DNA from: a virus
Lineage: Duplodnaviria > Caudoviricetes
Strand: one strand, 5' to 3'
DNA: 57,795 nt
IMG/VR virus record: IMGVR_UViG_3300031857_000216
Span: 1 to 57,795 of that record
The position numbers and the translations under genes are program-made. The notes below the pieces were generated by a model, which saw nothing but the letters and a program-made list of their open reading frames with translations, did not search any database and was not told the origin of the DNA. This document shows, in pieces, positions 21,615 through 44,236 of the stretch. The number at the start of each line of letters is the position of its first letter. Within the stretch, counting starts at the first letter, position 1.

Positions 21615-21739
21615 TGTCCCTCCTAGGGCCAGCTCATGATGAGTCTCTTTTTGACTCATCTCGGGTTTCTGTCCAAGGAAAGGGACTCACGCGCGAAAGG
21701 CGGAGGCACTTGCCTAGGTCTCATAATACCAAGGTACGA

Positions 21740-27066: not shown

Positions 27067-27073
27067 AACCGTC

Positions 27074-27463: not shown

Positions 27464-27482
27464 CCTTCACGCTATTATATCG

Positions 27483-30400
27483 CTACACCACGGATGGTGG
27501 CACGAACTCCTGAGCGATCCTTTTTCTAATTTTATCGATGAGATCTGTTCTACCTTCTTTTTCAAGATCCATAATCAAACGAAACACGAGCGCCATGACG
27601 TCCGCCTCGAATTTGTCTTCGACACGGTTGATCAGATCAATAAGAGATGTAGACCCTGACGTAATAGCGTCATTCTCGAGGTACAGTCTTGCCTGCTTAA
27701 TGGCTCCTTCGAATCCGCCGCTATACGCGCCAGGCCCCATGACAACTCCAAGAGGCGTGTACCCGTACAAATTCCCGCTCATACCTCTCTCGGCAAGTTG
27801 TTTATAGATCTCAATCGCCTCGTCGATGCCGATCTGCCTTGGGGAGGGAGGGATGCCTGGTACGGCGTCATCGTAGTCGACAGACGGCCGGTATTCGTAT
27901 AGCCTGCCGTCGGGATGAACAATGAGCAGATTTCCGTTGCCTTCCACCCTCGCGTACACCCTCGAACCTATCGGAGCGGTTCTATAGCGAAGACGGCTGC
28001 CTGTCGCGAAATCAAGAAACGTATTGTACAAGACTGCGTCATGTGATGCGTAGTTAGATAGTTCGTAGAGCTCAGGCAACTTGATCAAACCGATCTCCTC
28101 GATGCTGTTCTCGAAGATGTCATCACTTGGGCCCGAGGGGTCCTTTAGTCTTTTCTCGTAGTATCTGGTGTCGAGTGCGTTGAGCCTGACCTTCCTCGAG
28201 GCATTCTGAGAATCCTCGCTCAGCTTGATGAATTCCTCAATTGGCACGCCGTTGATCTCGGTTACGCCTCTTCTTCTGAGCTCCTCAAGTAGATCGTCGC
28301 GGATTTCGCTAGACACAACGACACCAACGGCGGCGTCAATGCCGACGCGACCTTTGATCATCGTCTCATACATAAACGGCAGTGTTTCACTGTAGACTCC
28401 CATCTGATAGCCGCCCTTTGGCGTCCTCGATCCAAACTGATCTGTGGAGTTTGCGTAGAGGTCTGATCTCTCATAGATATTGGCGGCGTCAAAGATGATC
28501 GTCATAGATCCGTACATTGGATCAGCAATCGTCTTAAAGCCTTTTCTTGGAGACAGATAGACGTAGTCCGCGCCACCGCTACTGATGTCTGTCTTGCTTG
28601 ACATGCCGCTGACTGGTATGCCCTCAAGCGTTCTTGACGTCGTAGACAGCAGCGCACCAAACCCGCCGTGCTCGGGGCCGACCAACGCAGCTACAAGATT
28701 CTTAATCATCCAGTCCTGCGCCTCACTCAGGGTGATCTCTTCTCCATACAGAGCCGTGTAGTCGCTTGCTGCGGTCCACCGGTCCGCGGTCATCGTGTGG
28801 ATGAAGAATCCCGTGTCAGTTCTCTCCATCATATCGAAGACAAAGTCTTCAGGCATGATGTAGCGAACTAAGCCCGAGCTGTCTACGACCACCTTCAAGT
28901 CCTCTGGACCGATTCCGTACCTGCTCTTGATCTGCCCAAGAAGATCGTCTCGCCTATCCTGCTCGATGACGTTGTTTGCTGGGTCATTTATGCCAACAAG
29001 TAGACTGATGAGGCGATTCTCGATGAACACCCGCATGTCCTGCTCCTCGGCCGGTCGCGGAGACCGCACTCCCGCCTTCTCAAGAAGCCGAGCGATCACC
29101 TCCGGCGCATCGGCGCCGTCTACCTTGTCTATCGGAACGTCAATAGTGACCATGTTGTGGTATGCATTTGGGCCAGGCAGCCTTGCCTCTGACTGCGAGG
29201 CGATCGAGGTGAGACTTGGGTCTGTCGTCGATCTTACGAGAGTAATGTCGGCATCGGTGTCATCGTCTAGGTAGCTGTATACAGCGGTAGCTGCGCCTCC
29301 GCCCGTCGAAAAGCTCGCAAAGAACCTCTCGCTGATGACGATGTTTCCTTCGTCGTCGACAGAGGTGGTCGGTGCAAGATATCTGTCCCTAACTTCCCAC
29401 TCGGCGTCGTCAGACGCCGCGATCGCGAGATCACTTCCTGCCCACGGAGTCAGCTTGAAGCGAAGACGAAGCATTCTTTCGCCGCTCGGCGTCACGATCG
29501 TCATCGCGCGAACCTCAAGGTCCTCGATGTCGCCGGCGTCGATGGCGGACGCCAGCACCGGCATCTTGTCGCCGTCCTTATTGATGACGCGATCGACGAC
29601 GTCCATGAGAGATGGAACGTCCGTTGATCCGCCAAACGGCTTTGAGCTTAGGCTCTTTGTTGTCTCGGGCTCAAACCTGGGTCTACCCGTTGGCTCGATT
29701 ACGACGGGCTTATCGTCGACTACATCTACAGTTGAGTCAGAGTCCTTCTTGTTGTCCTGGCCAACAACCGCGATTCGGACGCGCTTCACGACGCCGTTGG
29801 AGTCCGTAACCTTGCTGACAACCCTGAACGTCGTGCCGCGGTCAAGAAGAATCTCATGCTCACTTGTGAGGCTGCTCAGTGAGCCAAGAGTCTGGTTGAC
29901 ACTGACTCCGCGCGTGCCCGCCGGCACCGCGATCTCAAGAACAAGTCCAAACTTGTCGTCATCGTCTCCGTACCTAGAGAACTGCTCGCCGGTGCTTGGG
30001 CTCAGACTTGTTGAGGAGTATCCTAGATCGTGAAACACCGCTCCAACAGGGTAGTCGGCGATTTCTCGGGCGTAGTCGCTATGAATGCCACGATGAAGAA
30101 CAAGATCAACCGGCGTGGTTGGCGCCGCCTCAAAGAGCCTGTCGAGATCTGCGACAAGATCATCAGCCTTCTCTCTAAGATTCGCAAGCTCGTCGGGAGT
30201 CTCGACGTAGTGAATGTCGGTTATATCGCCGCCGCGAAGATGCGTGTTGATGCCCATGTAGTCCGTGTCGGTGTAGTTCTCGAGCGCGGTATAGCTCTCC
30301 GCTAGCGGAAGATCATCAAAGTCAATGTCAGGATCGCCCCTATCAACACCGAATTCAGCCTCGTCATACGCAGATGCAAACTTATCCTGCGCGGCTCCAG

Positions 30401-33400
30401 CGGTACTTAGGGGCGCGATTTGGAGGAACGGATCGTCGCCGGCGTCAACGGAGTCGGTCGCCTCGTCGTCGTCGCTTGTTGCCGCAAGAAATATGGACGC
30501 TGCAGATCGCGCAAAGTCGGGGTGGAGCACCCCTTGCTCGCGCATGAGATTGATCTCGTCCGCAGTGAACCACCCGTACTGTGTGTTCTCGCCGTCCGCC
30601 TTCTCAAGGTCAATATTTGGCGATAGAAGAGATGGGTCGGCCTTGAAGATCTGCGTGGTGTATGCCCAACCAGTTGATGGCTCAAACACGTGAGTGCCAA
30701 TGAGGTCGAGGCCCTCGATCATCGCGCCCATCTCCTCAAGGAACTCCTCGCGAGCGGTGATGCCCGTCGTGTCCTTTGAGTTCAGCCTGTCCTTGTGCGC
30801 TCCACCTGGGTACGCCCACTTGCCGCCGCCGCCGGAGATTCCTGGCGCGCGCCTGGCAAGAAGATACGTATGTGAGCCCGTGTACTGGTTTATTTCTGCG
30901 CTGCGGATGAGCGCGCCGGCGGCGCCGTACCTGCCCCAGTATCGTTTTCCATCAATGGCGAAGTAGTATCCCTCGCCGTCGTCTGGGTCAGCCGTTCCGC
31001 CGTTGACCGGAGCAAAGAACGGAAGCATCGGCGGAGTCAGCACCCCGGCGCGGAGATCGTAGACGTCGCTCACCGAGATGTTGTCCGCGCTGTAGACACC
31101 GTCTTCATCCTGTGAGATCTTGTAGCCTCGCCATGTTCCGCCGCCGTCGCCGCCGTCGCCATCCGGCGCTACCTCTTCGACGTCTGGCTGCGGAGCTGGT
31201 GTCTCATCGGTAGTAGGTGCCTCGGTCTTGCGCCTCTGGCCGACCACGGCAACGCGCATGCGTGCAACGCCGCCATCCGGGTACTCAACCTTGCTGACGA
31301 CCCTAAACGTTGTGCCGCGGTCGATAAGAATCTCTTTTTCTTCAAGATTGGAGTCGGCAAGTCTCTCCATGTCAAGAGCATGGCTCCCTGCTGGAAGAAC
31401 AATCTCGACGATTAGTCCCCTGGAGACGGCTTCGAACGAGTACTCGCCCTCGACAAAGGGCAGCGTGGCTGACGCGTCCGTTGACGTCGACGTAAACGCG
31501 TGCTCAACGAAAAGATCGCCGACCTCGGCGTCCTCGAGCATGTCAATATACTCGCTATCTTTTGTTCCGTGAACTCCACGGTACAGAATAACGTCCTGGG
31601 TCGTCGTTGGGTGTAGATCATAGTAGCGATCCATGACCGCAACTTCATCTTTTGAATTCTTCGGTACACCATCGTGGCGACGAAGATCGCTGTTGATCTG
31701 TTGGTATCCATCCTCCACGTATTCCTGGAGAACATCTGGGAGACCGTACTCCTCCTCAAGCACGGGAATCTCGTCGAAGAGGCTAGGGCCGTAGCTCTCG
31801 CGCATCTCAAGAAGCATCTTCTCTACCTCATCTGCGCCGGAGACTGGCGCAGTCTGAAGATCGGGATCGACGTCGCTAAGCGTTGACTCGTCGATGCCCG
31901 GCTGCGGAGAGAACGGGTCGGTCTCGTCGGAGAAGTTTAGCTCGCTGCCCTTCCACATTCCATGTGAGGCAAGTCTTGCGATGGCGTTCGGGGACATGTC
32001 CGATAGCTGAGATGCAGTGGGAGCAAATGCCTTGTTCGTTTCATCGATCACCTGCTCGTTGGCGTACGAGCCGTGGTCAGCATGGAGGCTGCTCTCTACT
32101 CCAAGCTCCATGGCCAACTTGGCTGCGAGCGCGTCGGCACCCTGCGTTGGAGAGTACTGCTCGCCACCCTCGAACACAAGAGCGTTGCGATTTGCCGTCT
32201 CGTCGATCTGCTCTCCGAAGCGAGAGATCGCGGTCTCTCGATCTACGCCCATGAGGTTCATCCAGTATGCTATCGCTTTCTCACGATCTCCTGGGTTGAC
32301 TCCGCCCAACTCCTTGAGCGCATCGGAGTACATCCTGTCAACCTCGTCCTGCGACGTGCCTGGCTCGATCTTCAGGACGCGCACGGAATCCTTGGGAAGC
32401 ACAAGAGGCTGACCGGGAGCCGGCGACATAAAGGTGTCAACGACAAGAAGGTTGTCTAGCGAGTCTGGGTTTCTGTCGATCGTCGGCTGCAACCCGGAGA
32501 CGATGATCCACCTCGGCTTGTCCTCGTGACCCGTTCTAAGCATATGCCCGGCGACAACGTGGTTAAGCGCAAAGTGAATCGTGCCTCGCCCGTAGGCGTA
32601 CCGGCCAATCTCGTCCTCCTGTATCCAGTCTCCGCTTGGGCGCAGAAGCACGTTGCCCTCGTCGTCGTACTCCGGCTCAAACGAAGTCTCGTGAGTAAGC
32701 ATCAGCTGCTCGGTTGTTACTTCCGCGAGACGCCCGTCGGTGATCTGCTTGTTGCCTGACTCCTCAAGAAACTCTTGTTTTTCTCTCCGGCTTTGGGCCT
32801 TTCTTTCGTCTGCAGATTCACGTCCGAGTGAGGCAAGCCTCTCGAACTCTGCCATGGCGTCGCCATCTCCGCGCGAGCCGGCATAGAGAAGCGCTGATAC
32901 GTACGGCGCGACCTGCTGCGGTCCGCCGAATGACTCGTCCCTGTACGCGTCCTCCATGAGATGCGCGACGGCATCGGCAAACTTGATTGCCGTTTCCTTG
33001 CCTTCCTCGCTGTCGTAGTCGAGTCCGGCAATAACGTATGGGTTGATTGGCAGCAGGTCAACGTCGTCGTCCAGTTCAAAGTCAAGATCTACGACGTCCT
33101 CTGGGTCGTCTCTTCTCCAGCTTTGTCCGTAGCCGACGTTGCTTCGTTCCTTGTCCGGTACGCCGAATGCGATTCTTCTCTCGTTGCCGATCCGCCAGAC
33201 GTCGACGGAGATGTTTGCATCGCCAATTCTGACGGATCTTTTCTCGTCGGGCTCCATCTTGAGCTCGCCGTTAGTAAGAATCTTCTCCGCCTTCTTCACC
33301 TTTGCAAGTGGAGCAAGCGCCGATGAACGCAGTTCTTCGTCTATAACTTCAGGGGTTGGAGTCGCCCCCGAAGGGGCGTCACCTTTTGGGACTTGTAACT

Positions 33401-36400
33401 CGTCCAGTAACTCAATGACTCTTTCGACGTCCCTGGGTTTGATGGCTCCACTCGAGATGTATGCGCCGATTAGCTCGGAGATGACCTCGTCGCGCGGCCC
33501 GGGGAAGTCGCCCGCCTGGTCGAGGATCTCCTTGGCGACCTTCTCAAGCGGGTCCTTTTTCTTGGACTTGCTTTCCTTCGCCTTTTCCTCGACGTTCTCT
33601 CGAAGCGCCTCGGTTGTTCCAGCCTCGGGTTCGCCGGCCTCGCCTCCGCCTCCGGAGTCCGGAGCCTCGGGCTCCTTCACTCCGACCGGGCCCTCGCCGT
33701 CGTCATCGCCCTTCTTCTTGGCTGCCGCTTTTGCCGCCGCCTTCTTCGCCTTCTTCTCGGCGGCGTCGGCTGCGTCGATCTCGGCGCGCTCCTCCGGAGT
33801 TACAAGCTCTTCCCAGTTCGCCGGGCGCTTGCCCATCGGAATGTTCGGGTTGTAGATCCAGAGCCTCTGATCGTCGTCGTCCTTGACGACGGTCAGAGTG
33901 CGTGTGCCCTTTGAGAGATACTCGTTTGGTTCGTGATCGTCTCTCCGAACGAAGACGTTGTGCCAACCGTTCTTGCTGTAGCGAAGCACCGTACCGATGA
34001 AGCCCCACTTGTCGCGAACTCGCATACCGGGAACGATGAACTCGCCGTCACGGCTCCAGCCGCGCTCGGTGAGCTCCGGCGGTGGCAGCGCGTCGCCGAT
34101 CGGTCGGTTGTACCGCTGCTCGTTGAGAGTGACTCTAACCTCGTTGATGTAATCGCTAAGAACGTCCGCGTCAACGGCGTCCTCGCCGGTGCCGGAGATC
34201 TTTGGCATGTCGTCAAGAATGGCGGTAAGACGCTCGACAGCCTCGACGTCGTCAATCTCGCCAGACTCGTATGCGCGGCGGACCTCGTTGAAGTCGTCGA
34301 TGACCTTCTCGATCGCCTTGCGAACGGACGGCTTCTTGAAGTTTGTCGTCTCGGGGTCGATGATGCTTTCGGCAAACTCGCTTGCCTCCTCGAAGCGCTT
34401 CTGAACGTCGAAGGTCTTCTGCTCGGCGCTGACTCCTTCACCGGGAGTAAACTCGGTGCGATCAACTCCGTCTGCCTCGGGAGTCTCGTCGGGGATGCTC
34501 GATGTCGATGGTGCGTCCTCGGAGTCCACCTCTCCGCTCGTGACGGCCTCCGGGTCGCTAAGCTCGCCTGGCTTGACCGTCGCCGCGTCGATGAGGTCGT
34601 CAAGCGACGGAACGAGACAGTCGTCGTCACCAACCGCCGCGACAAGTCCGGACGCGTTGACTCCGCCGCCACCGCAGTTCCACGCCGCTGCAATCGCCTT
34701 GTCCATCTCGTAGCGTGCAACCTCGTCGCGATGACGCTCGAGGGCGGCGTCGTACTCCGCCTTCTTCTCATCGTAGCGATCGCGCTGCCCCTTGAGCGAG
34801 TCTAGTCGAGTGTCGGCGTCAGGCTTGCTGGGCGCGTCATCGAGCAGCGATGCGAGCAGGCCGCCCGTACCCTCGGCGTCCGCGTCGGCGGTGTGCCAGT
34901 TCTCAAGGTCGATTCCGTAGTGCTCAAGAAGCTGCGGCAGCCTGTGGCCCGCGGGGCCATCGGGGTTGCTAGCGGAGCGGCGCTCAAGAAGCGTGCGGGC
35001 AAGAACGAGCGTGTCGATGTAGCCGCCCGGCTCGTAATCAATGCTTGCATCGGCAAGAGCTCTTTCGAAGACGCCGCGATCGAACGGCATGTTGTGCGCT
35101 GCAAGAATCGCGTCAGGTCCAGCCCACTCGAGGAAAGCCGCGTGCGCCTCGCCCATGCCGGTCTGCTGCGCGAGGTACTCGTCGCTCAGCGAGTCGCCGT
35201 CGGCATCCTTGAGGTTTGCGCGCGACCACTCGCCGAGTGCCTCCCGAGGATCCATGAAGATGTTGAATCGGTCGACGACCTCGCCGTTGAGCATGCGCAC
35301 GGCGCCGAGCTGAACGGGCTTGTTCGTGTTGCCGGGATCAAAGCCCGTTGTCTCATAGTCAAAGACAACGATCTCGCGGGCCGCGATGGCTCGCTTGATC
35401 TCGGCCCAGTCCTTGGCGCCGGCGACAACGTCGGCGATGCGGCCCTGGAACGCCGGCTCGTCTGGCCTGCGCGGCGCCTTGGGACGATGCAGCGCCGGAG
35501 CGTCGCCCTTGGGCGGAGTTACTCCGCCGCGGCGAGCGTCGATGACGGTATTCTCGTTCCACTCCTTGCGCTGCGACTCGTGCCCGGGGAAGTATCCCTG
35601 AACGCTGACCTTGCCCTTGGGAGTCGCCTCGTCGCGGAACACGGACTCAATCACGAACGAGTCGCCGAGGGTCACGTCGCCAGGCTTGAGGTCCTGGGCG
35701 GCGTATCCGGTCTCGATGAGCTCCGGCTCATCAAGCTCCGTCGTGTCCTCGACGCCGAAGCGCTCGAGCAGGTAGCGCCTGCGGTTCTTCAGGCGCTCCT
35801 TGAGAAGAGCGGCGTCGTCTGGGTTGGTCACGATGTTGTCGACGAGCTCGTCAATCTGGCTCGGGCTGATGTTGAGAAGAAGCTTCACGCTCTCGCGGAC
35901 GTCGTCGTCGGTCATCGATCCAAAGACCGAGCCGCTATACCAGTTGACGTCCTCGTCGCGCATCGAGTCAATCTCAAGCACCTCGTCGCCAAACGAGTCC
36001 TTGGGACGACCCTGAGCTCGCCACATGAGCGCGCCGCCCGGATCGACGCGAACGGGATCGCCGTTTGCATCGGTGACGATGTTGTCGTATCCGGTGCCTG
36101 TTACGTCGTAGTTGGCGAGCCACGCGTCGATCGCAAAGTATTTGCGGATCTTGTCAAGGTACGCCTCGTCGCCGCGCATCACCCGCTCTTCAAAGTCTGC
36201 GGTGTCTGCGTCGGGAATAAGAATGGAGACGATGCGGTCCTTGCCATCGTCGGTGCCAGGGCGCACCTTCGCCGCGGGAACGCCAAGCGCCTCGTAGAGC
36301 ACCGACGCGAGAACCTCGTTGTCGAGGTGCGAGCGGGACTTGGGCGTCTTGACGTAGTATCCGCTGCCGTCGGGCGCCTGGTAGAAGCCGCCGGGATTGG

Positions 36401-39400
36401 ATCCGGCCTGGCCACCGGTCTTTGTCCAGCCCGTGGTGTCGATTGTCTCAAGCTGAATCGGGGGAAGCTCTGGGCCGGCGTCAACGTCAACGTCGGCAGG
36501 CTCCTCACGGCGCTCTGGCTTGCGAAGCTCGACGATGATCTCGTCCGCGTAGCCAAGACCCGAGGGCTGGCGGCGAACCGACGCCACCTCGAGCTGGCCG
36601 AACGACAGATTCTCGTTTTCTCCGGTGAACCAAGAGACCGGCGTCACGTCAACGGAGTTGATCGTGCCGGGCGGCGCGACGAAGACAACGCGATGGTGAC
36701 GTGGATCGTCAGGCGCAAATGTCATCGCATCGACGGCTCGGCCGCCGGTGCTGTCCGTCGTCGAGAACGGCCTCGGGTCGAAGCTGATGATCGAGCCCTC
36801 CGTGGTGTAGAGGTTGAACAACTCCGTGTCGTCAGGCGACACCGGAACGACGCGGTATAGCGGCTGCGTGTTTGTTCGCGACATCTGCTTGATCAACCTC
36901 ATGAACGCACCGGCGGCTCCAGTGTCGTCTAGGCCGCGCTCTCCGCCGGCGATCAAGCCACGGTTGCGCACGAAATCGCTGAAGTCGCCGTACTCGTCGA
37001 GGAACTCCTCGTAGGTTTCTCCCGGGGAGCCCTCGGTCCCGCGTGCTGAGTGGTATTTTACGAGAGCGTTGAATAGCCTTCCGCGGAAGCCGTTGGGATC
37101 GCTGTAGTCGTAGCGGTCGGACGAGCCCCCGTCAAGTGAGAGAAGCATTCCCCAAAGACCGGCAAACGCCTCGCGTTCCTCGGCGTCGTCGCTGTAGGCA
37201 AGAGGTAGGTACCCGTCAAGAACCAAGTCAAGGCTTTCGCCAAACTCAAAGACGTCGTCATCAAAGGCGCGGTTGAGCTCGTCGGCGAGGCTAACCATCG
37301 TCGGGTTCGTCTCCTGGTACCCGTCGATCTGCTCGAACACGCGGCGCATGCGGTCGGAAAGACCCTTGCCCCTGCGCCACTGATCGCTCTCGTCTGTCGA
37401 GTCACCCTTTGGCACCTTTGTCGACGGCAAGAGTTGATCGTCAGCCTGGTCAAGAAGTCGCATGTCAGCGGCACGGGAGTCGTAGCGCCTGGTGTTTTCT
37501 GTGCCACCAAGACCGGAGTCATAGATCACCGCAAGAATCCGCTCCGGATCCTCGCCAAGCATACGGAGAGCGTCGTAGAGCGCCTCGGCTGGAACGGCCT
37601 CGTCGCCCTCCTCAAACTCCACCATTCCGTAGCCGGTTGCCTCGTCTCCTCTCCTAGGGAGAACGGCATCGGCCAGTGCAAGCGTCAGCTCCTCACGGGT
37701 GTACTTAGACAGACCCAAAGGATCGTCTGTGTAGTCCGGGCTGACCTCGTCCGTGCGCCCCTTGGGCAGGTAGTTGTCAAAGATGTTGAGCTTGTATCCA
37801 CCGTCAGGTGTCTCAAAGAGGTAGTCATACTCCTTGATCTCGGCCTCGTCCATCTTGCGCGGGCCGGGGCCGCCGGGGCCGCCTGCGGGTGGCTCGCCGG
37901 GGGCGCCGGGGCCCATCCTTCGAAGCTCGTCCTCGGCGCTCAGCTTTGCGTCGCGCTCTGACGCGTACCGATTTGACGAGATGCGCTCGACGGGCTCACC
38001 GGTGACCTTATCGGTCGAGTGCTGAATGTGGAAGAAGTTACCGTCCTCGTCTTGATCTACGGTGTAGTAGACTCCCTCGCCGGTTAGCCTGAGCGTTCCG
38101 TCTGCGTCGGGTCGCCAATCGCCGAAGCGGCCGGCTACGGAGTCCGGCGGGCTCTTAGGCCTATAGCCGTAGGTTCCATAATCTCCAACGGGGCCCGTGT
38201 AGATCCACTTATCCTCACCGGGCAGGTCACCCTCCGGATTTAGCTCCCAGTTGGCCGGATCATTGATCGCCTCCATCGCACGCTCAAAATCGGCAAGAAC
38301 GCGGCGGGCGACGCTGTCGTCGTCGTCGATCTGCTCGTTGAGTGGCTTGAGGCCTTCCTCGCGAAGATCCTGGATTAGCTGATCGCGCTCGGGGTAGAAG
38401 CCCTCCCAGACGAGGTAGTCAGCTAGGCCGCCGGAGCCGCGGCTAAAGAACTCGGTCTCGGCCTGCTCGAATTGCTCGGCGGTCGTAGGTATGTAGGGCA
38501 CGCTGGTGCGAGAAGCAAGACGCTCGTTGTCCATCTCACGGAGCTGATCAAACACGCGGTCGGATGGGTCGACGTCGTATGTCGGGTCTCCAACGCGCTT
38601 CATACCCTCGCGACGAAGAGCCTCGATCGTTGGGTGACCGTCCTCGTAGATTCCCTCGTCAACGAGGAAGTCAGCAAGTCCGACGTCGCCTCTGCTGTCG
38701 TATGCGCGCTTGCCGCGCTCCGTAAGCGTCAGATCGACGATGTTTGCGAGGTCGGGGTTAGACTCAATCTCGTCGATCTTCGACGTGCGGAAGTGGTTCT
38801 CAGCCCAGCGCTTTGCCTCATCGGCAGATTCAAAGGAGTCACGGTGGTACTCGCCTACGCCTTGCCAGCCGTCCTCGGTGCCTTCGTATCGCTCAACGTA
38901 GTACTTTCCATCATCATCCTTGACAACGGCGTAGAGGCGATTACCCCTAGGCTGGAACATCTCCGTGTCCGGGTCCGCCGGCCGAGTGGTCCAGTACTCG
39001 ACGGGCGCTCCGGCATTGTAGCCGTCGATGAGCTCACGCGCTGGCTTGCCGGAGTTCTCGGGGCGGCGGACATATGACGCGAATCCAGGGTCGTTGGAGA
39101 TCATCTCGCGGAATGTCGCGTTCGTCTCACGAACGTTGTCGGCTACGCCCTCCGCGGGCGCGCCGATCTTCGGCGGACTGTTGTCAAGATCACGCAGGTA
39201 GTCAAACGCATTCTGAACAGCGGTTGCCTCATCGACGTCACCGTCGCGACGGTCGGTGGTCAAGTCACGGGCAATCTTGCTGTCGCTCTCGACGCCGAGG
39301 CCATCAACGAGGTAGCTGTAGAGTGCGCGGTTATCGCCAATGTCATAGAGGCTGCGTCCGCGATCCTCAAGCTCGCCGGGGACAACATACGACGAGAGGT

Positions 39401-42400
39401 CAAACTCCTCAAGCGGAAGACCAGGGGCGGGTGCCTCGGTTCCAAGAGGGTCGATCTTGCTGAGAGTGAAGTTCTTCTTGTCGCCGTTCTGGTCGATGGC
39501 CTCAAGGTTGCGGTTGCCGTTCTTGGGGTTTGTCCAGATGCGAAGTGGCTGAACCTCGCGGTCCTTGCCGTTGTAGCTGAAGCGGACCTTGCTGCCGTTT
39601 GCAACCGCGTCGGCGACCTGCGAGATGATGTCACCTCGTGGGTCGATATCAACGGAACCCGCGACCTCGGGAGCTACGTCTTCAGGCTCCGGCTCAAGTG
39701 GCTCGATCTTGTTGATCGTGAATGTGCGATCTCCCTGATCAAGGGCGCTGAAGCCCTTGATGTTGACGTTGCCGTTCTTCTCATTGACGGTGACCGACTC
39801 AGGGCGAACGACGCGCTCCTTGCCGCCGTAGTTGAACGTGATGAGCTCGCCATTGGCGATGGCCTTTTCGGCAATCTCCTGAATCTGCTCAGGAGTCATG
39901 CCCTCCTCGACGCGGTTCGTCTTCATGCTCCTAGGCGCCTCGGGCGCTGCTGGCGTTTCTGCCGGTGGAGCGCTCTCGATGTCAAGACCAAGACGAGATG
40001 CCGCATCAGACGGGACGTTGGGATCGATCCCAAGCTTCTCAAGAACCTGGCGCTTCTCGTCATCTGTAAGATTCGCCGCCTTGAGCGTATCCCTGAAGCG
40101 CTCGACGCTAGCGCGGCCGGACGACCACGCTCCGTAGTCGTCGGAGTAGTCGTAGTAGAAGTCAGCGCTCCGAAGCTTGGCGGCAACCTCATCGACGGCG
40201 AAGTCGCGGTCGTTCTCAAACGTGCGCGCCTCGACCTCGCTGGCCCTAGCCTCAGCCTCGGCTGCCGCTGCCTTCTCTGCCATGCGCGGCCTGACGTCCT
40301 TGTCGAGGATTCCGTTCACGATGGAGAGATCGTCAGGGTCCTGGTACAGCTGCGCCTCTCCGAATGCGTCGGCAAGCTCGGAGAGCTGCTCCTCACTTAG
40401 GTCAGCGTCAACGATGCGGTCAACAACCTCTTCGACAGACGGGTACTTAATCCTGGTGTCTGGGCGACCCACCGCGCCGAAGAGTTCTCTGCCAAGGGTG
40501 CTGGGGAGGTTGATGGGGTCAGCCGGGTCGCCTTCAGCGTTGAACACCGGCCTAGGGCGCTGCTCGTAGCCTTCAAACGCCCTGTCGATGTCGTTGTACC
40601 CAAGATTGACGGACCTGCGGTCGCCGTTGCTGTCGATGATCGTGCCGGTGATCCTCTGCGGACTGACGTCTGTGGGTTCAAAGAGAACGTTTTCTCCGTC
40701 AACACTGAACCTGGCTAGGTCGCCGTCATTCTTAATCTTCTTGAACTGATCACTAAGCGGCTCGTTGAAGTCTACGTCGACCGTGGCCTTGTCCTCGCCC
40801 TGCGCGATGACGTCTTCGATGATCGGCTCGAGCGCCTGCTCCCACGAGTCGTACGGACCGCCAAGCACTTCTTTGGCCTCGGAGCCATTGTTCGATCCGC
40901 GATACGCGCTGAATCGGTGCTCACCCGTCTCCGGGTCGACGAACTCGACGACGGAGTGCTTACCGTCTGGAGAGACGTATTCTGCGTAGGTGCTGTACGG
41001 TTGGAAAACATTGGAGTCTTGAACAAAGGCAGCCTCGCCATACTTTGTCCAACCCTCTGGTCCCTTGTTCTTAGGAAGAAGAGTCTTGGGGTCCTTTGCC
41101 GCTCGCGCGCGGTCGGCGGCAACAACCTCGAGTGCCTCGTCGAAGCTTTCGAGATTGCGACCAAGTGTGTGCTCTCTATCTGCTCCGCGCACGGAGACGC
41201 CGAACACCGGCGGGTCGCTCGTCAGCACCTCTTCGATGCTATACGCAGACTCGTCGGGGTTGGACGAGCGATGCGTCCGCTGAAGCACCACTCCATCGCC
41301 GCGGGTCACCGACGGGACGGACGACCAGTCGTCGGGGTTGCTTTCCTGCGCTGCAGCCTCTTCATCGGTCGGAGTGCGGAGGTCGCGCTGCGTATCGCGA
41401 TAGGAGTCAGCAGTCGCGCGCGCTGCCTCCCTGCGCGATTGGCGCGTCGGTGCCGGAGCGGGTCGGCTTACGTCAACCCTTTCGTCTACCTCAAGACCCT
41501 CGGCCTCCTTGAGAGACGCGCGGTACGCGTCTTGGTCACCGAGAGCCGCGCGCTGAACGTCTGCCCATCCCCTGGCTGTCGCTACCTTTTCGCCAACCGA
41601 GTTGTCGGCAGGGTTTGCGCGGTGAAGCGACAGCTCGCCGTTCGGCTCCTCGATCACGTAGTAGCCGTCGTCAGATCTCCACATTCCCGGCCCGTCTGTG
41701 ATGGGTCGAGCCCTAAACCAACCCTCCGGCTCTCCTGCCTTCTTTCTCGCGAGGTCATCCTGGTTCAGCGCGGCTCGGCGGCGAGCGCCGAACACGCCTG
41801 TTCGGGGAAGATTCGCCACGGCCTTGTCGCTAAGAACGGCGCGAATCGCGTCTCCGGAGCTCGAAGGTACGACGTAGATTCCGTCTGGAAGATCGCGGTC
41901 GCCCTTAACCTCTACCTGAATGCCGTCCCCCTGTGCGCCGCCGGACGTTCCGACGACGCGGCCGCTGACGGTTCTAAACAACCCGCTAAGGGTCTTCATC
42001 GGGAACGAGAAGCCGCCGCCCATGTACGCGAATCGACCCTTGCGGTCGCGGCGCTGAAGCTGAGCCCTCGCCCTACGCGCGGCCTCGGAGTTTCCGCCAA
42101 GGCCAAAGCCACCGACGGCGACAATCGGGTCAACCGACGCGGTCAGCGGTACAAGCCCCGCATCGAGAGCCGCAAGTCGCGCGAACGCGTGGCGACGCTC
42201 AATCGACCCAGGCATCGCCGCGTGAGCGGCGGCAACGAGCGGGCGCACCTCATCGGCGACGCGCTCATCGGCGGCGATCCACCTGGCGCGCGCGTCACGA
42301 AGAGCAGCGGCGGTCATTGCGTGCGGGCGGGTTGACGCGGGGTGGCCAACCGTAAGTAGATCGGAGTTCTGTGCCGACGCCGTCGTGACCTTGTTCCTCG

Positions 42401-42635
42401 ACGCAAGCGTGATGTGAGCCGATACGGCGCGAAGAGCCGAGAACACTCGGGCATCGGGATCGCTATGGCGCGTCTTGCGTAGGTCGCGGTTGGCGACCTC
42501 GATCGCGACGGCGACAGGGACCTTGCGCTCAGGGAGCAGGTAGACGTTCGAGCGCTCAAGCAGCCCAAGAATCTCTGCGCGAAGCTTCGCGGAGTGATTA
42601 CGCGTGAACTGCTTTCTGATGTTCTTCTTCTTCAC
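27483..42635 (-). CDS. giant 5050-aa polyvalent protein: WYL-like domains, 3 ADP-ribosyltransferase-like domains, PI3/4K/HipA-like kinase, DEDDh exonuclease, Nudix hydrolase
   Basis: Single uninterrupted ORF. ART motifs LYRG/STS/ExE; kinase GSNPGG...YYVK..NEVLA..DAWLANYD; exonuclease VFDYETTG..HN..FD..H.A.AD; Nudix W..PGG..EE.G; WYL F.Y.GK.R.V.P. Confidence 0.9.
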   Translation of the reverse strand: MKKKNIRKQFTRNHSAKLRAEILGLLERSNVYLLPERKVPVAVAIEVANRDLRKTRHSDPDARVFSALRAVSAHITLASRNKVTTASAQNSDLLTVGHPASTRPHAMTAAALRDARARWIAADERVADEVRPLVAAAHAAMPGSIERRHAFARLAALDAGLVPLTASVDPIVAVGGFGLGGNSEAARRARAQLQRRDRKGRFAYMGGGFSFPMKTLSGLFRTVSGRVVGTSGGAQGDGIQVEVKGDRDLPDGIYVVPSSSGDAIRAVLSDKAVANLPRTGVFGARRRAALNQDDLARKKAGEPEGWFRARPITDGPGMWRSDDGYYVIEEPNGELSLHRANPADNSVGEKVATARGWADVQRAALGDQDAYRASLKEAEGLEVDERVDVSRPAPAPTRQSRREAARATADSYRDTQRDLRTPTDEEAAAQESNPDDWSSVPSVTRGDGVVLQRTHRSSNPDESAYSIEEVLTSDPPVFGVSVRGADREHTLGRNLESFDEALEVVAADRARAAKDPKTLLPKNKGPEGWTKYGEAAFVQDSNVFQPYSTYAEYVSPDGKHSVVEFVDPETGEHRFSAYRGSNNGSEAKEVLGGPYDSWEQALEPIIEDVIAQGEDKATVDVDFNEPLSDQFKKIKNDGDLARFSVDGENVLFEPTDVSPQRITGTIIDSNGDRRSVNLGYNDIDRAFEGYEQRPRPVFNAEGDPADPINLPSTLGRELFGAVGRPDTRIKYPSVEEVVDRIVDADLSEEQLSELADAFGEAQLYQDPDDLSIVNGILDKDVRPRMAEKAAAAEAEARASEVEARTFENDRDFAVDEVAAKLRSADFYYDYSDDYGAWSSGRASVERFRDTLKAANLTDDEKRQVLEKLGIDPNVPSDAASRLGLDIESAPPAETPAAPEAPRSMKTNRVEEGMTPEQIQEIAEKAIANGELITFNYGGKERVVRPESVTVNEKNGNVNIKGFSALDQGDRTFTINKIEPLEPEPEDVAPEVAGSVDIDPRGDIISQVADAVANGSKVRFSYNGKDREVQPLRIWTNPKNGNRNLEAIDQNGDKKNFTLSKIDPLGTEAPAPGLPLEEFDLSSYVVPGELEDRGRSLYDIGDNRALYSYLVDGLGVESDSKIARDLTTDRRDGDVDEATAVQNAFDYLRDLDNSPPKIGAPAEGVADNVRETNATFREMISNDPGFASYVRRPENSGKPARELIDGYNAGAPVEYWTTRPADPDTEMFQPRGNRLYAVVKDDDGKYYVERYEGTEDGWQGVGEYHRDSFESADEAKRWAENHFRTSKIDEIESNPDLANIVDLTLTERGKRAYDSRGDVGLADFLVDEGIYEDGHPTIEALRREGMKRVGDPTYDVDPSDRVFDQLREMDNERLASRTSVPYIPTTAEQFEQAETEFFSRGSGGLADYLVWEGFYPERDQLIQDLREEGLKPLNEQIDDDDSVARRVLADFERAMEAINDPANWELNPEGDLPGEDKWIYTGPVGDYGTYGYRPKSPPDSVAGRFGDWRPDADGTLRLTGEGVYYTVDQDEDGNFFHIQHSTDKVTGEPVERISSNRYASERDAKLSAEDELRRMGPGAPGEPPAGGPGGPGPRKMDEAEIKEYDYLFETPDGGYKLNIFDNYLPKGRTDEVSPDYTDDPLGLSKYTREELTLALADAVLPRRGDEATGYGMVEFEEGDEAVPAEALYDALRMLGEDPERILAVIYDSGLGGTENTRRYDSRAADMRLLDQADDQLLPSTKVPKGDSTDESDQWRRGKGLSDRMRRVFEQIDGYQETNPTMVSLADELNRAFDDDVFEFGESLDLVLDGYLPLAYSDDAEEREAFAGLWGMLLSLDGGSSDRYDYSDPNGFRGRLFNALVKYHSARGTEGSPGETYEEFLDEYGDFSDFVRNRGLIAGGERGLDDTGAAGAFMRLIKQMSRTNTQPLYRVVPVSPDDTELFNLYTTEGSIISFDPRPFSTTDSTGGRAVDAMTFAPDDPRHHRVVFVAPPGTINSVDVTPVSWFTGENENLSFGQLEVASVRRQPSGLGYADEIIVELRKPERREEPADVDVDAGPELPPIQLETIDTTGWTKTGGQAGSNPGGFYQAPDGSGYYVKTPKSRSHLDNEVLASVLYEALGVPAAKVRPGTDDGKDRIVSILIPDADTADFEERVMRGDEAYLDKIRKYFAIDAWLANYDVTGTGYDNIVTDANGDPVRVDPGGALMWRAQGRPKDSFGDEVLEIDSMRDEDVNWYSGSVFGSMTDDDVRESVKLLLNISPSQIDELVDNIVTNPDDAALLKERLKNRRRYLLERFGVEDTTELDEPELIETGYAAQDLKPGDVTLGDSFVIESVFRDEATPKGKVSVQGYFPGHESQRKEWNENTVIDARRGGVTPPKGDAPALHRPKAPRRPDEPAFQGRIADVVAGAKDWAEIKRAIAAREIVVFDYETTGFDPGNTNKPVQLGAVRMLNGEVVDRFNIFMDPREALGEWSRANLKDADGDSLSDEYLAQQTGMGEAHAAFLEWAGPDAILAAHNMPFDRGVFERALADASIDYEPGGYIDTLVLARTLLERRSASNPDGPAGHRLPQLLEHYGIDLENWHTADADAEGTGGLLASLLDDAPSKPDADTRLDSLKGQRDRYDEKKAEYDAALERHRDEVARYEMDKAIAAAWNCGGGGVNASGLVAAVGDDDCLVPSLDDLIDAATVKPGELSDPEAVTSGEVDSEDAPSTSSIPDETPEADGVDRTEFTPGEGVSAEQKTFDVQKRFEEASEFAESIIDPETTNFKKPSVRKAIEKVIDDFNEVRRAYESGEIDDVEAVERLTAILDDMPKISGTGEDAVDADVLSDYINEVRVTLNEQRYNRPIGDALPPPELTERGWSRDGEFIVPGMRVRDKWGFIGTVLRYSKNGWHNVFVRRDDHEPNEYLSKGTRTLTVVKDDDDQRLWIYNPNIPMGKRPANWEELVTPEERAEIDAADAAEKKAKKAAAKAAAKKKGDDDGEGPVGVKEPEAPDSGGGGEAGEPEAGTTEALRENVEEKAKESKSKKKDPLEKVAKEILDQAGDFPGPRDEVISELIGAYISSGAIKPRDVERVIELLDELQVPKGDAPSGATPTPEVIDEELRSSALAPLAKVKKAEKILTNGELKMEPDEKRSVRIGDANISVDVWRIGNERRIAFGVPDKERSNVGYGQSWRRDDPEDVVDLDFELDDDVDLLPINPYVIAGLDYDSEEGKETAIKFADAVAHLMEDAYRDESFGGPQQVAPYVSALLYAGSRGDGDAMAEFERLASLGRESADERKAQSRREKQEFLEESGNKQITDGRLAEVTTEQLMLTHETSFEPEYDDEGNVLLRPSGDWIQEDEIGRYAYGRGTIHFALNHVVAGHMLRTGHEDKPRWIIVSGLQPTIDRNPDSLDNLLVVDTFMSPAPGQPLVLPKDSVRVLKIEPGTSQDEVDRMYSDALKELGGVNPGDREKAIAYWMNLMGVDRETAISRFGEQIDETANRNALVFEGGEQYSPTQGADALAAKLAMELGVESSLHADHGSYANEQVIDETNKAFAPTASQLSDMSPNAIARLASHGMWKGSELNFSDETDPFSPQPGIDESTLSDVDPDLQTAPVSGADEVEKMLLEMRESYGPSLFDEIPVLEEEYGLPDVLQEYVEDGYQQINSDLRRHDGVPKNSKDEVAVMDRYYDLHPTTTQDVILYRGVHGTKDSEYIDMLEDAEVGDLFVEHAFTSTSTDASATLPFVEGEYSFEAVSRGLIVEIVLPAGSHALDMERLADSNLEEKEILIDRGTTFRVVSKVEYPDGGVARMRVAVVGQRRKTEAPTTDETPAPQPDVEEVAPDGDGGDGGGTWRGYKISQDEDGVYSADNISVSDVYDLRAGVLTPPMLPFFAPVNGGTADPDDGEGYYFAIDGKRYWGRYGAAGALIRSAEINQYTGSHTYLLARRAPGISGGGGKWAYPGGAHKDRLNSKDTTGITAREEFLEEMGAMIEGLDLIGTHVFEPSTGWAYTTQIFKADPSLLSPNIDLEKADGENTQYGWFTADEINLMREQGVLHPDFARSAASIFLAATSDDDEATDSVDAGDDPFLQIAPLSTAGAAQDKFASAYDEAEFGVDRGDPDIDFDDLPLAESYTALENYTDTDYMGINTHLRGGDITDIHYVETPDELANLREKADDLVADLDRLFEAAPTTPVDLVLHRGIHSDYAREIADYPVGAVFHDLGYSSTSLSPSTGEQFSRYGDDDDKFGLVLEIAVPAGTRGVSVNQTLGSLSSLTSEHEILLDRGTTFRVVSKVTDSNGVVKRVRIAVVGQDNKKDSDSTVDVVDDKPVVIEPTGRPRFEPETTKSLSSKPFGGSTDVPSLMDVVDRVINKDGDKMPVLASAIDAGDIEDLEVRAMTIVTPSGERMLRLRFKLTPWAGSDLAIAASDDAEWEVRDRYLAPTTSVDDEGNIVISERFFASFSTGGGAATAVYSYLDDDTDADITLVRSTTDPSLTSIASQSEARLPGPNAYHNMVTIDVPIDKVDGADAPEVIARLLEKAGVRSPRPAEEQDMRVFIENRLISLLVGINDPANNVIEQDRRDDLLGQIKSRYGIGPEDLKVVVDSSGLVRYIMPEDFVFDMMERTDTGFFIHTMTADRWTAASDYTALYGEEITLSEAQDWMIKNLVAALVGPEHGGFGALLSTTSRTLEGIPVSGMSSKTDISSGGADYVYLSPRKGFKTIADPMYGSMTIIFDAANIYERSDLYANSTDQFGSRTPKGGYQMGVYSETLPFMYETMIKGRVGIDAAVGVVVSSEIRDDLLEELRRRGVTEINGVPIEEFIKLSEDSQNASRKVRLNALDTRYYEKRLKDPSGPSDDIFENSIEEIGLIKLPELYELSNYASHDAVLYNTFLDFATGSRLRYRTAPIGSRVYARVEGNGNLLIVHPDGRLYEYRPSVDYDDAVPGIPPSPRQIGIDEAIEIYKQLAERGMSGNLYGYTPLGVVMGPGAYSGGFEGAIKQARLYLENDAITSGSTSLIDLINRVEDKFEADVMALVFRLIMDLEKEGRTDLIDKIRKRIAQEFVPPSVV

Positions 42636-42638
42636 GGC

Positions 42639-43727: not shown

Positions 43728-43747
43728 TGCGTGCCTACCTAGGTGAC

Positions 43748-44236
43748 TCAGACGACGCCGGTGTTGAACAGGTATGACCGGAGCTGCCAGTCCCACTTCT
43801 TGTGCATGCCGTCACGTGACGCCATGAAGTCGGCGATTCCCTGCTCGTCAGCGGCGTCGGCGGCCTTGAAGCAGTCGTTGATACTCTGAATCATCACCGT
43901 GTTTGCCTGAAGAAGATCGATGAGCATGGCCTTGGCGTCGCAGCCGCAGTCCATGTCCTCGATCGACGTGAGGCGCGCGAACTCAACGAGACGATGAGGC
44001 GCGTTGAAGCCAAGCTTCAGCATGTTCTCGGCAGTTTCGTCAATCATGCCGTAGACGTCCTCGTAGATCGTCCCAAAGAAGTCGTGAAACTGCGAGAAGA
44101 GCATTCCCTTGACGTTCCAGTGATGACCCTGCGCCTTAAAGCTGAGGTTGACGGCGTTGGCAAGAACCTCGGCAAGAGCCTCGGCAACCTCGCGCTTTGC
44201 GCCCTCCTTTAGGTCGATCATATATTCCATGCCCAT
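43748..44236 (-). CDS. dps: Dps family DNA-protecting mini-ferritin
   Basis: HHWNVKG..F..FH..F...Y......DE.AE signature; C-terminal HKKW.WQL. Confidence 0.9.
   Translation of the reverse strand: MGMEYMIDLKEGAKREVAEALAEVLANAVNLSFKAQGHHWNVKGMLFSQFHDFFGTIYEDVYGMIDETAENMLKLGFNAPHRLVEFARLTSIEDMDCGCDAKAMLIDLLQANTVMIQSINDCFKAADAADEQGIADFMASRDGMHKKWDWQLRSYLFNTGVV

Follow-up and report, generated by a model that had tools for sequence, protein, structure and literature searches.

Polyvalent proteins, as described in the main text of Iyer et al. (2017; PMC5512222), are encoded by phages and conjugative elements and unite 2-15 unrelated effector domains in one polypeptide, with MPTase and ArdC-N as the top hub domains. 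There and in the accessible text of Iyer et al. (2022; PMC9503650), polyvalent proteins and phage ADP-ribosyltransferases (ARTs) encoded among head genes were argued to be packaged and injected, with the head-packaged T4 Alt and MuF fusions given as precedents. The former text also describes the 3500-residue virion RNA polymerase of phage N4 (gp50), whose N-terminal region acts in injection and whose C-terminal region is required for encapsidation, and some relatives of which carry an H-Y-D type ART fusion (PMC5512222). Here, we analysed the IMG/VR virus record IMGVR_UViG_3300031857_000216 over its full 57,795 nucleotides (the window), and found that the giant protein encoded in its head module, far from being a unique mosaic, belongs to a large conserved family whose N-terminal domain (N-dom) and core are constant. 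With a probability of roughly 0.6, we consider this giant protein to be a polyvalent effector that would be built into the virion and injected together with the DNA. An earlier inspection of the letters and reading frames (the sequence-only reading) had likewise spoken of a polyvalent effector in the head module, and this is still the best reading. It had also described a single acidic 5050-residue open reading frame (ORF), whose coordinates proved to be exact and whose acidity was confirmed (isoelectric point 4.5):

27483..42635, minus strand: polyvalent protein ORF, GTG start, 5050 residues

Virion delivery apart, every testable property by which Iyer et al. (2017) define polyvalent proteins is seen in the predicted product of this ORF, which has at least nine recognisable domains of six kinds in one polypeptide. 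Like the polyvalent proteins, it is multi-effector, ART-bearing and encoded with virion genes, and its content is shuffled between relatives. Unlike them, it is fused to neither MuF nor portal, and its constant N-dom and a second constant module (X1) are without a match among known families. Moreover, its 5050 residues, and the up to 7986 residues of its relatives, set it apart in length from the proteins of PMC5512222, and the hub domains MPTase-PolyVal and ArdC-N, together with a SprT-like domain, are absent from it and each present in one of 16 sampled relatives. Nowhere in its main text does PMC5512222 mention HipA, CotH or DarT, and its accessible passages on kinases concern a different clade that lacks a C-lobe.

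As with N4 gp50, whose terminal regions for injection and encapsidation flank a catalytic middle (PMC5512222, main text), we are dealing with a giant single polypeptide. In contrast to gp50, however, it has no RNA polymerase domain and no detected sequence similarity, and the phage is siphovirus-like, with a tape-measure gene. A likeness to T4 Alt and the MuF-ART proteins lies in one of its ART domains (ART3), with matches to the exoenzyme ART family and to phrog_802, which is Alt-like (E 2.7e-14); MuF-ART fusion proteins of Microbacterium phages are about 32% identical to ART2 and ART3. Yet T4 Alt and the MuF-ARTs carry one effector each and are anchored in a known way, by a capsid-targeting sequence or by MuF, and the giant protein has neither, no MuF domain being found in it with Pfam or PHROG. 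Since there is no MuF or portal fusion, the MuF-toxin precedent drawn on by the sequence-only reading is an analogy only.

A constant N-terminal domain at a fixed head locus

To describe the family, we begin with its two most widespread modules, of which X1 is a predicted domain:

41496..42635, minus strand: N-dom (residues 1-380), basic, the constant N-terminal module of the whole family
36996..37835, minus strand: X1 (residues 1601-1880), conserved, with a DYTDDP motif and invariant columns

A word-indexed homologue search, restricted to proteins of 2777-8838 residues, gave 25 giant homologues plus an identical copy; the homologues have 3113-7986 residues and stand on contigs of up to 152 kb. 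By BLAST, four blocks are common to nearly all 25 (residues 1-380, about 900-1070, 1601-2940 and 4313-4803), and four stretches (residues 400-880, 1080-1600, 3150-3590 and 4950-5050) have no counterpart in any of them. The cassettes ART2, Nudix and ART3 are found in about half. The precomputed Pfam sets of the homologues comprise RNase_T, ADPrib_exo_Tox, UvrD helicase, NUDIX, KTSC, WYL, AAA_30 and ResIII. A comparison of domain content at this locus in related phages had been suggested by the sequence-only reading, and across the 25 homologues ART, Nudix, UvrD, KTSC and WYL domains do vary.

N-dom is conserved in 18.5-24 of the 25 giant homologues per 50-residue bin, and has no match in Pfam, PHROG, NCBIfam, PDB profiles or the ESM Atlas (the Atlas query being residues 1-400). 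A profile of N-dom searched against 1.84 billion representative proteins matched 546 clusters (50% identity) at E <= 1e-3, and 233 of these at <= 1e-30. In all 150 of the matches listed, which belong to proteins of 343-7004 residues, the match begins at residue 1-37. Pfam scans of 16 sampled members revealed RNase_T in three and UvrD in three, with DnaG primase/Toprim, MPTase-PolyVal, ArdC-N, SprT-like, DUF7178, WYL and RyR domains each in a single member. We infer that N-dom is a candidate capsid-incorporation or ejection module.

For a census with hidden Markov models (HMMs), 172 family proteins were fetched, and the 145 of at least 1800 residues, which include the identical twin of the giant protein, were counted; the counts are lower bounds, since some proteins are cut by contig ends. 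N-dom was found in 144 of the 145 and X1, the most widespread module after it, in 132. These were followed by the DEDDh exonuclease (74), the kinase-like domain (73), a small all-beta domain at residues 2308-2378 (70), the C-terminal domains C2 (68) and C1 (64), ART1 (56), a second small domain at residues 2840-2930 (48) and Nudix (25). Among relatives, the end of C2 lies a median of 30 residues from the C-terminus of the protein. Some of the relatives of 5.8-8 thousand residues (among P0009-P0017) hold a second kinase copy and up to three or four domains of the ART2/ART3 type, which indicates that cassettes duplicate inside a protein as well as shuffle. The constant modules are thus N-dom, a WYL pair, X1, ART1, the CtkA/HipA-like kinase, the DEDDh exonuclease, C1 and the putatively DarT-like C2, and the cassettes of the giant protein are ART2, Nudix and ART3, plus orphan regions. 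Across the family, the core stays conserved while the cassettes that accompany it (ART, Nudix, UvrD, DnaG, MPTase-PolyVal and ArdC-N) are shuffled.

The genes that surround the giant gene are the following:

49208-50623, minus strand: large terminase subunit
44243..46027, minus strand: portal protein (phrog_776, E 5.5e-106)
43748..44236, minus strand: Dps/ferritin-like protein (Pfam Ferritin, E 6e-17)
42639..43796, minus strand: DUF5824 protein (Pfam DUF5824, E 1.4e-7)
22312..26352, minus strand: 1346-residue protease-like head protein (phrog_18402 'head maturation protease', E 8.2e-59; phrog_859, E 5.1e-94)
19761..21659, minus strand: major capsid protein (phrog_777, E 1e-82)
11433-14474, minus strand: tape measure

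The window is the whole 57.8-kb contig, part of the siphovirus-like genome of an uncultured phage of actinobacteria, with nearly all genes on the minus strand; further genes encode a head-tail adaptor, a major tail protein, a Dit-like protein, a minor tail protein and a DNA polymerase. The terminase, adaptor, tail and tape-measure genes share the strand of the giant gene. The sequence-only reading had placed this gene between portal and prohead protease, and while the overall order stands, the two are not its direct neighbours: the Dps/ferritin-like and DUF5824 genes intervene, and two small ORFs separate it from the 1346-residue protease-like gene.

This arrangement is widely kept. We found 49 IMG/VR loci with a relative of the giant protein, using an alignment as the query, a single C-domain sequence having returned no relative. 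The order portal, DUF5824, N-dom, core was seen in 42 of 42 loci with the genes within reach, the core was followed by the protease-like gene in 29 of 29, the order core, C-domain, protease-like gene held in 18 of 18, and the protease-like gene was followed by the major capsid gene in 7 of 7. The DUF5824 gene lies directly upstream of the giant gene in 43 of the 49 loci, at a median gap of 68 nucleotides to the N-dom match, and its product could serve the giant protein as a chaperone or adaptor. The Dps/ferritin-like gene stands between portal and DUF5824 in 14 of the 49; a head module is an odd place for a gene of iron storage or DNA protection, and its product might be further capsid cargo. 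Median identity of the best high-scoring segment pair was 74% for the portal and 67% for the capsid protein, versus 41% for N-dom, 42% for the core and 29% for the C-domain. By these sequence identities, evolution is much faster in the giant protein than in its neighbours.

Among deposited phages, the metagenome-assembled Actinomycetia phage DSL-LC01 is the closest, with a major capsid protein 79.5% identical to that of the window; more distant capsid relatives are found in Microbacterium, Arthrobacter, Gordonia and Mycobacterium phages. At the same locus, DSL-LC01 has a 3289-residue version of the giant protein, annotated as hypothetical, which is without the exonuclease, ART2, Nudix and ART3, and goes unmentioned in the accessible part of the DSL-LC01 paper. 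Distant cultured phages have this locus divided over separate genes. In Microbacterium phage Cece, portal gp66, gp68 (1654 residues) and gp70 occupy this locus, and the first 219 residues of gp68 are 37% identical to N-dom residues 170-377. Gordonia phage Forza has, upstream of the capsid gene, portal gp77, gp78 (734 residues, with a kinase domain 33% identical to ours) and gp80 (a 1017-residue ART). Cece gp70, annotated as 'capsid maturation protease', is 45% identical to the 1346-residue protein over its full length, and additionally covers the next window gene (21740-22303). In Forza, the counterparts are the separate gp82 and gp84, and in DSL-LC01 three genes annotated as 'capsid maturation protease', so that the protease-like module must have been fused and split repeatedly.

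Domain composition of the giant protein

The recognisable domains, and the two conserved C-terminal ones, are as follows, all on the minus strand:

39666..39887, minus strand: WYL-like unit 1 (residues 917-990; PADLOC PDLC01457, E 4.8e-8; jackhmmer 7.5e-28)
39426..39632, minus strand: WYL-like unit 2 (residues 1002-1070; Pfam PF13280, 22.1 bits at a cut-off of 21.8; PADLOC PDLC01652, E 1.9e-9)
36507..36911, minus strand: ART1 (residues 1909-2043), predicted divergent R-S-ExE fold with R1928, S1958, E2006 and E2008
35742..36449, minus strand: atypical protein-kinase-like domain (residues 2063-2298), fold nearest to CtkA/CotH/HipA
34836..35390, minus strand: DEDDh 3'-5' exonuclease (residues 2416-2600), from Pfam RNase_T, PHROG, PADLOC and PDB
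31170..31748, minus strand: ART2 (residues 3630-3822), VIP2/C3-type, with R3686, STS 3716-3718, E3766 and E3768
30489..31133, minus strand: Nudix block (residues 3835-4049, the fold at about 3886-4042), with the box variant E-x2-EE-x-G
29691..30308, minus strand: ART3 (residues 4110-4315), VIP2/C3/Alt-type, with R4182, STS 4208-4210, E4259 and E4261
28959..29672, minus strand: C1 (residues 4322-4559), conserved, beta-rich and confident in the AlphaFold2 model
28221..28931, minus strand: C2 (residues 4569-4805), with H4613, Y4691 and E4757

Eight of the nine domains assigned by the sequence-only reading hold. The exception is a third, degenerate WYL unit proposed near 40600-40730, where jackhmmer gave a non-significant independent E-value (i-E) of 0.28 at residues 627-661. 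The other two WYL units, expected at about 39450-39870, were located by Pfam and PADLOC at 39426-39887, and share 39% identity.

Among the enzymes of the core is the exonuclease. Pfam RNase_T (PF00929) matched residues 2423-2589 with E 7.8e-17 (62.7 bits versus a cut-off of 24), and further matches were to phrog_192 (E 2.5e-27), the PADLOC DEDDh model (E 1.3e-22) and the PolC exonuclease in the PDB (2p1j, E 3.9e-11). All five catalytic residues (D2426, E2428, D2519, H2581 and D2586) are invariant, which bears out the DEDDh label it had been given.

ART1 and the kinase-like domain were modelled together by AlphaFold2 (residues 1880-2400, from a 15-sequence alignment), with a mean predicted local distance difference test score (pLDDT) of 78.6. 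In a Foldseek search, the ART1 model matched the ART toxins Plx2a (E 1.2e-4, template modelling score 0.47 on the target) and Certhrax (E 1.5e-4), and all 15 aligned relatives keep R1928, E2006 and E2008. Neither Pfam, PHROG nor NCBIfam has a model that matches residues 1909-2043, and a profile comparison with ART2/ART3 by hhalign reached E 0.052 and not more, with the motifs aligned in register. The proposal of an ART here thus holds for the predicted fold and the motif, and at this level only.

Structural comparison of the kinase-like domain by VIA-align gave CtkA as the nearest fold (Z 15.8, root mean square deviation (rmsd) 3.7, 219 residues aligned), followed by CotH (13.8), HipT (12.0), HipA (11.6) and LepB (11.3), with RioK1 and PRPK (9.7) and PI3K (about 9) as weaker matches; Foldseek also gave CtkA (E 1.2e-7). 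The earlier label of a PI3/4K-HipA-like kinase is therefore a fair one, though CtkA/CotH/HipA (Z 11.6-15.8) are nearer than PI3K (about 9). The domain shares its fold with CtkA, CotH and HipA-HipT over about 200-219 residues, and has conserved Lys, Asp, Asn and Asp-x-Gly positions. The invariant K2096, D2177, N2185 and D2198 are tentatively equated with the catalytic residues, going by their motifs. However, the domain is just 9-18% identical to those kinases, and no Pfam kinase family (HipA_C and PI3_PI4_kinase included) was matched at E <= 0.1, either here or in Forza gp78 and Dolphis gp117. Sequence-profile searches of the PDB with the N-dom, ART1-plus-kinase and C-domain alignments gave nothing significant. 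The best profile match, a stretch of NSE2 (E 6.5e-4), is implausible.

In cultured phages, relatives of the kinase-like domain have 33-41% identity. It lies inside proteins annotated as ADP-ribosyltransferase in Pseudomonas, Aeromonas, Yersinia, Morganella and Escherichia phages; in these Gram-negative cases, the domain is 35-41% identical and belongs to 1200-residue proteins of phages of about 90 kb. Gp117 of Pseudomonas phage Dolphis, for instance, has the kinase domain and a C-terminal ART, and is encoded outside a head module. The pairing of kinase and ART, being present in phages of Gram-negative bacteria too, crosses phyla. Judged from these alignments, the kinase forms a phage clade of its own (Gordonia, Pseudomonas, Aeromonas, Yersinia and Morganella phages), often beside or fused with ARTs.

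In the C-terminal third, both VIP2-type ARTs had been expected from their motifs (LYRG/FTSTS/EKE in ART2 and LHRG/YSSTS/EHE in ART3). Pfam ADPrib_exo_Tox (PF03496) indeed matched in two stretches (111.3 bits versus a cut-off of 23.4, E 4.9e-32), the best at residues 4116-4278 (ART3), and the other assigned by us to ART2. Moreover, phrog_595 spans residues 3635-3781 of ART2, which has a weak PDB match to Vis (E 0.91), and ART3 matches phrog_3895 (E 6.6e-24) and ExoT in the PDB (E 5.3e-4). With 34% identity (E 3e-32) and a complete R / STS / ExE set in each, ART2 and ART3 are, by this similarity, taken as paralogues. The Nudix domain named between them was recovered as a match of residues 3886-4042 to RenU in the PDB (6uuf, E 1.2e-9), and PF00293 is precomputed on homologues, while on the giant protein itself Pfam NUDIX gave no match at E <= 0.1. 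The canonical Nudix box is Gx5Ex7REUxEExGU. Here, E3963, E3966 and E3967 are invariant in 9 of 9 sequences and E-F-L-E-E-M-G is kept, whereas the first Glu is preceded not by a conserved Arg but by any of R, A, I, L, Y and K, and the loop exceeds that of this consensus in length.

An AlphaFold2 model of residues 4300-5050 had a mean pLDDT of 70.6 and was confident over model residues 20-510. For C1, Foldseek returned low-probability rows only. For C2, the top five rows were all DarT (E 7e-3, the best being 7.1e-3, to 1.3e-2; probability 0.98-1.00; nothing below 1e-3), and below them came a further DarT and SopF, an ART effector. When 48,161 representative chains were searched with VIA-align, DarT1 likewise ranked highest (Z 7.5 and rmsd 3.9 for 158 of 208 residues, at model residues 297-514), a Z below 8 being one that can reflect a common arrangement; DarT made up four of the top five rows, and the remaining rows were short, helical and placed on the tail, where confidence is low. 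All 14 aligned sequences have H4613 and Y4691, and E4757 is kept in 12 of the 13 rows that reach the column (the 13th has Q, and one row is shorter). According to the accessible text of PMC11543638, an H-Y-E motif defines the ARTD class, DarT2 included. In C2, the candidate H-Y-E residues fit this motif in their order and secondary-structure positions.

DarT is the best match of C2 in two independent structure searches, with middling scores, and the conserved H...Y...E pattern of C2 may correspond to the ARTD motif. C2 differs from DarT in being fused to the end of a phage protein and not being the toxin of a toxin-antitoxin pair; no DarG/macro or NADAR partner was found within the giant protein by Pfam. 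No sequence-level match to DarT was seen in Pfam or PDB profiles, and a protein search with C2 alone returned one 439-residue hypothetical protein without a Pfam domain and nothing else. Against viral predicted structures, Foldseek gave uncharacterised proteins only for the C-domain model, the best a Pithovirus protein (E 1.1e-3), with iridovirus 422L and a betabaculovirus ORF32 among the rows; these two may be members of the 'ORF28' family, a DarT-like one named in PMC9503650. On this modelling, C2 is probably a DarT-like ART fold and not a member of the DarT family. The sequence-only reading had noted here a GGADYVY domain, and this motif is present at residues 4686-4692 (Y4691 at base 28563), within a domain that is conserved in the family; what no longer fits is the description 'unassigned', given this probable fold. 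If the call is right, the chain would have four ART-fold domains of two classes.

The segments between and around these domains, again on the minus strand, are:

residues 380-900, minus strand: variable region V1, with copies of a module of about 60 residues
41502..41684, minus strand: hairpin-plus-helix module of about 60 residues, copy 1 (residues 318-378; HMM)
41082-41261, minus strand: second copy (residues 459-518; HMM)
40785-40973, minus strand: third copy (residues 555-617; HMM)
38766-38954, minus strand: fourth copy (residues 1228-1290; HMM)
37902-38090, minus strand: fifth copy (residues 1516-1578; HMM)
residues 1080-1600, minus strand: variable region V2, with a repeated helical module
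38316..38720, minus strand: helical repeat of about 50 residues, two copies in V2 (residues 1306-1356 and 1390-1440; self-BLAST 41% identity, E 2.5e-7)
35502..35714, minus strand: small all-beta domain after the kinase (residues 2308-2378), strongly conserved GYFPGHESQRKEWN, model strands 449-489
34536..34748, minus strand: two-cysteine segment (C2654, C2673), AAWNCGG...C.VPS
33846..34118, minus strand: second small conserved domain (residues 2840-2930), from alignment and HMM census
31866..33188, minus strand: V3 orphan region (residues 3150-3590), globular in appearance and preceded by low-complexity linkers
27486..28220, minus strand: C-terminal tail (residues 4806-5050, 245 residues), mostly unique to the giant protein, its helical end of low confidence

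The HMM of the 60-residue module was built from the five copies themselves, and is circular for those five; beyond them, it had one weak match, in the relative P0003 (i-E 2.5e-4). C2654 and C2673, with a spacing of 19 residues, are kept in all 13 aligned homologues; a disulfide, a metal site and a processing site are among the roles they could have. The fold of residues 2840-2930 is guessed from the sequence to be all-beta. Searches for relatives of V3 in the family set, among 5.8 billion proteins of similar length and, with residues 3201-3600, in the ESM Atlas found none. In total, about 1,900 residues of the giant protein are without a detectable relative.

Continuity of the reading frame

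The giant protein is calculated to have a mass of 555 kDa and an isoelectric point of 4.5, with just 2 Cys in 5050 residues and a basic stretch over the first 300 or so; no transmembrane-like or strongly hydrophobic segments were seen, and it is soluble. An identical protein cluster (P0002) is present in the public protein collection. The possibility that so long a frame is an assembly chimera, allowed for by the sequence-only reading, or a pseudogene, an artefact of joining related phages, had to be considered, as no single public contig among the listed pieces spans the whole ORF and the pieces end at two kinds of place, the ART2/ART3 repeat and a low-complexity stretch rich in Lys and Ala. 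In addition, GC falls from 0.60-0.635 over 34000-44000 (about 0.62) to 0.55-0.58 over 27483-34000 (the 3' third, with the C-domain, ART3, Nudix and ART2), a drop that also fits recent acquisition of cassettes by recombination with a lower-GC relative.

The chimera was nevertheless not borne out. Twelve public runs contain at least 98% of the sampled words from a 10-kb stretch of the gene; as these were flagged as possible sources, not all are mutually independent. Their labels include lake water, freshwater and others, and no RNA runs were listed among the public runs with the sequence. Contigs from four public runs with different study codes tile 27000-43000 in the same order with end-to-end overlap, filling 30 of 30 bins with 0 indels, and one contig of 4966 nucleotides (29818-34783) crosses the low-complexity stretch. 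Three contig joints that skip 1.8-7 kb were not counted, their sides being merely 21-27 letters at repeats. Moreover, the 15 kb are free of stops, the protein is colinear with its homologues from N-dom to C-domain, and in 20 of 20 related IMG/VR loci where the N-terminal block is followed by the core and the C-terminal block, a single open frame of 3078-6194 codons takes in all three. One locus (L007) was excluded from this count, its N-dom match coming after the C-domain. Together, the tiling, the colinearity and the 20 single frames make a chimera or pseudogene very unlikely. A megablast of the ORF against 50,697 phage records gave no match.

Two further observations concern the assemblies. 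At the Lys/Ala/Glu-rich linker (33140-33290; residues about 2938-3047), high-depth contigs of other organisms join, and this is the weakest point of the assembly. In L007, the N-dom-like stretch downstream of the C-domain of the giant gene (12145-12807) may be a second, tandem member of the family.

Virion delivery and the alternatives

What points to virion cargo is the conserved position in a late structural operon, together with analogy to the systems described above. The protein would be made late and built into the procapsid via its constant N-terminal and/or C-terminal modules, possibly be cut by the neighbouring prohead protease, and be ejected into the next host cell along with the DNA. 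There, host proteins would be modified by the R-S-E ARTs and the kinase, while nucleic acid may be ADP-ribosylated by the DarT-like domain; the exonuclease and Nudix might destroy nucleic-acid or NAD/ADP-ribose-derived defence signals, and the WYL units might sense nucleotide ligands. The activities proposed for the ARTs, the kinase, the DarT-like, DEDDh and Nudix domains and WYL follow general knowledge of these families.

Several points weigh against this picture. Neither N-dom nor X1 matches a known family, and Pfam gave no MuF, portal or other recognised head-anchoring domain in the giant protein. Virion proteomics of relatives were not found in the literature. A chain of 555 kDa would have to unfold or be cleaved to pass a siphovirus tail. 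The support for ART1 and C2 is at the level of predicted fold only and middling (Foldseek E 1e-4 and 7e-3; Z 7.5). Finally, cassettes of the family such as DEDDh, UvrD helicase and DnaG primase/Toprim are typical replication and repair enzymes, and could act in the producing cell.

On that last point rests the alternative that the protein is made late, stays unpackaged and works in the producing cell (breakdown of host DNA or RNA, support of replication and repair, superinfection exclusion or late shutdown of defence), with its position in the operon setting no more than the timing. The missing head anchor and a size very large for cargo speak for it too. Against it stand the portal-to-protease/capsid position, the same in 42 of 42 and in 29 of 29 loci, the constant N-terminal module shared with the same-locus protein of distant cultured phages, and the hallmark polyvalent-protein domains in family members. 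ARTs in such a genomic context are, moreover, taken as head-packaged in the accessible text of PMC9503650. We therefore regard action confined to the producing cell as unlikely. The protein could also be primarily structural, an inner-body or 'ejectosome' protein that fills the capsid or forms a path across the actinobacterial envelope, with the enzymes as passengers. In agreement with this, N-dom and X1 are near-universal and each recognisable enzyme is optional (at most 74 of 145), the giant gene behaves as a core gene of the head module, and N4 polymerase, with its dedicated injection and encapsidation regions, sets a precedent (PMC5512222, main text). Nonetheless, the absence of transmembrane or strongly hydrophobic segments tells against it, and the catalytic residues of the core enzymes are invariant, which shows these enzymes to be under selection. 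A mainly structural role seems distinctly improbable, and it overlaps with packaged cargo more than it excludes it.

Another possible role is that of a 'Trojan horse' toxin, with the VIP2-like ARTs directed against eukaryotic grazers when these take up infected cells. This idea has been put forward for ARTs of freshwater actinophages, the proposal covering 24 freshwater phages with VIP2-like ARTs (PMC6802176, accessible text). ART2 and ART3 do match the exoenzyme/VIP2 family, and some of the sequence-bearing runs are labelled lake water or freshwater. Yet no translocation or B-component domain was seen by Pfam, the companions (WYL, DEDDh, Nudix, the HipA-like kinase and the DarT-like ART) belong to conflict between phage and bacterium, and the fixed head-module position and polyvalent architecture would be left unexplained. 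To this proposal we give a slim chance. Returning to the packaged effector, a more far-reaching version can be put forward, albeit as a doubtful one. N-dom and X1 would then constitute a new, MuF-unrelated system for capsid loading and ejection in a large clade of actinobacterial phages, injecting recombining enzyme arrays on the megadalton scale. The array here would be a complete kit for NAD+/ADP-ribose warfare, with three protein-directed R-S-E ARTs, a DarT-like ART against host nucleic acid, Nudix and DEDDh erasing ADP-ribose or oligonucleotide defence signals, and a HipA/CtkA-like kinase, and the prohead protease would cut the chain inside the capsid.

While the concept of polyvalent proteins is already known and published, these have been a matter of computational prediction with little experimental follow-up. 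Our literature search found no description of the N-dom family, though the closed supplements of PMC10611076 and PMC5512222 (FTP) may hold related architectures. Within these searches, what appears new is a family of very large size, its defining feature a constant N-terminal domain unlike MuF or portal; also apparently new are the clade of CtkA/HipA-like kinases tied to ARTs in phages of Actinobacteria and Proteobacteria and, at the level of structural models, the putative DarT-like C-terminal domain and the four ART folds in one chain. The family offers a large natural set, its hundreds of members combining a fixed locus and a constant putative anchor with exchangeable cassettes, and the packaging claim is testable through its distant cultured relatives in Microbacterium and Gordonia phages. 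The predicted DarT-like ART would serve a phage instead of a bacterial defence system, and the roughly 1,900 residues without relatives could hold new anti-defence activities. Above all, the conserved N-terminal domain may represent a new way of loading cargo into capsids.

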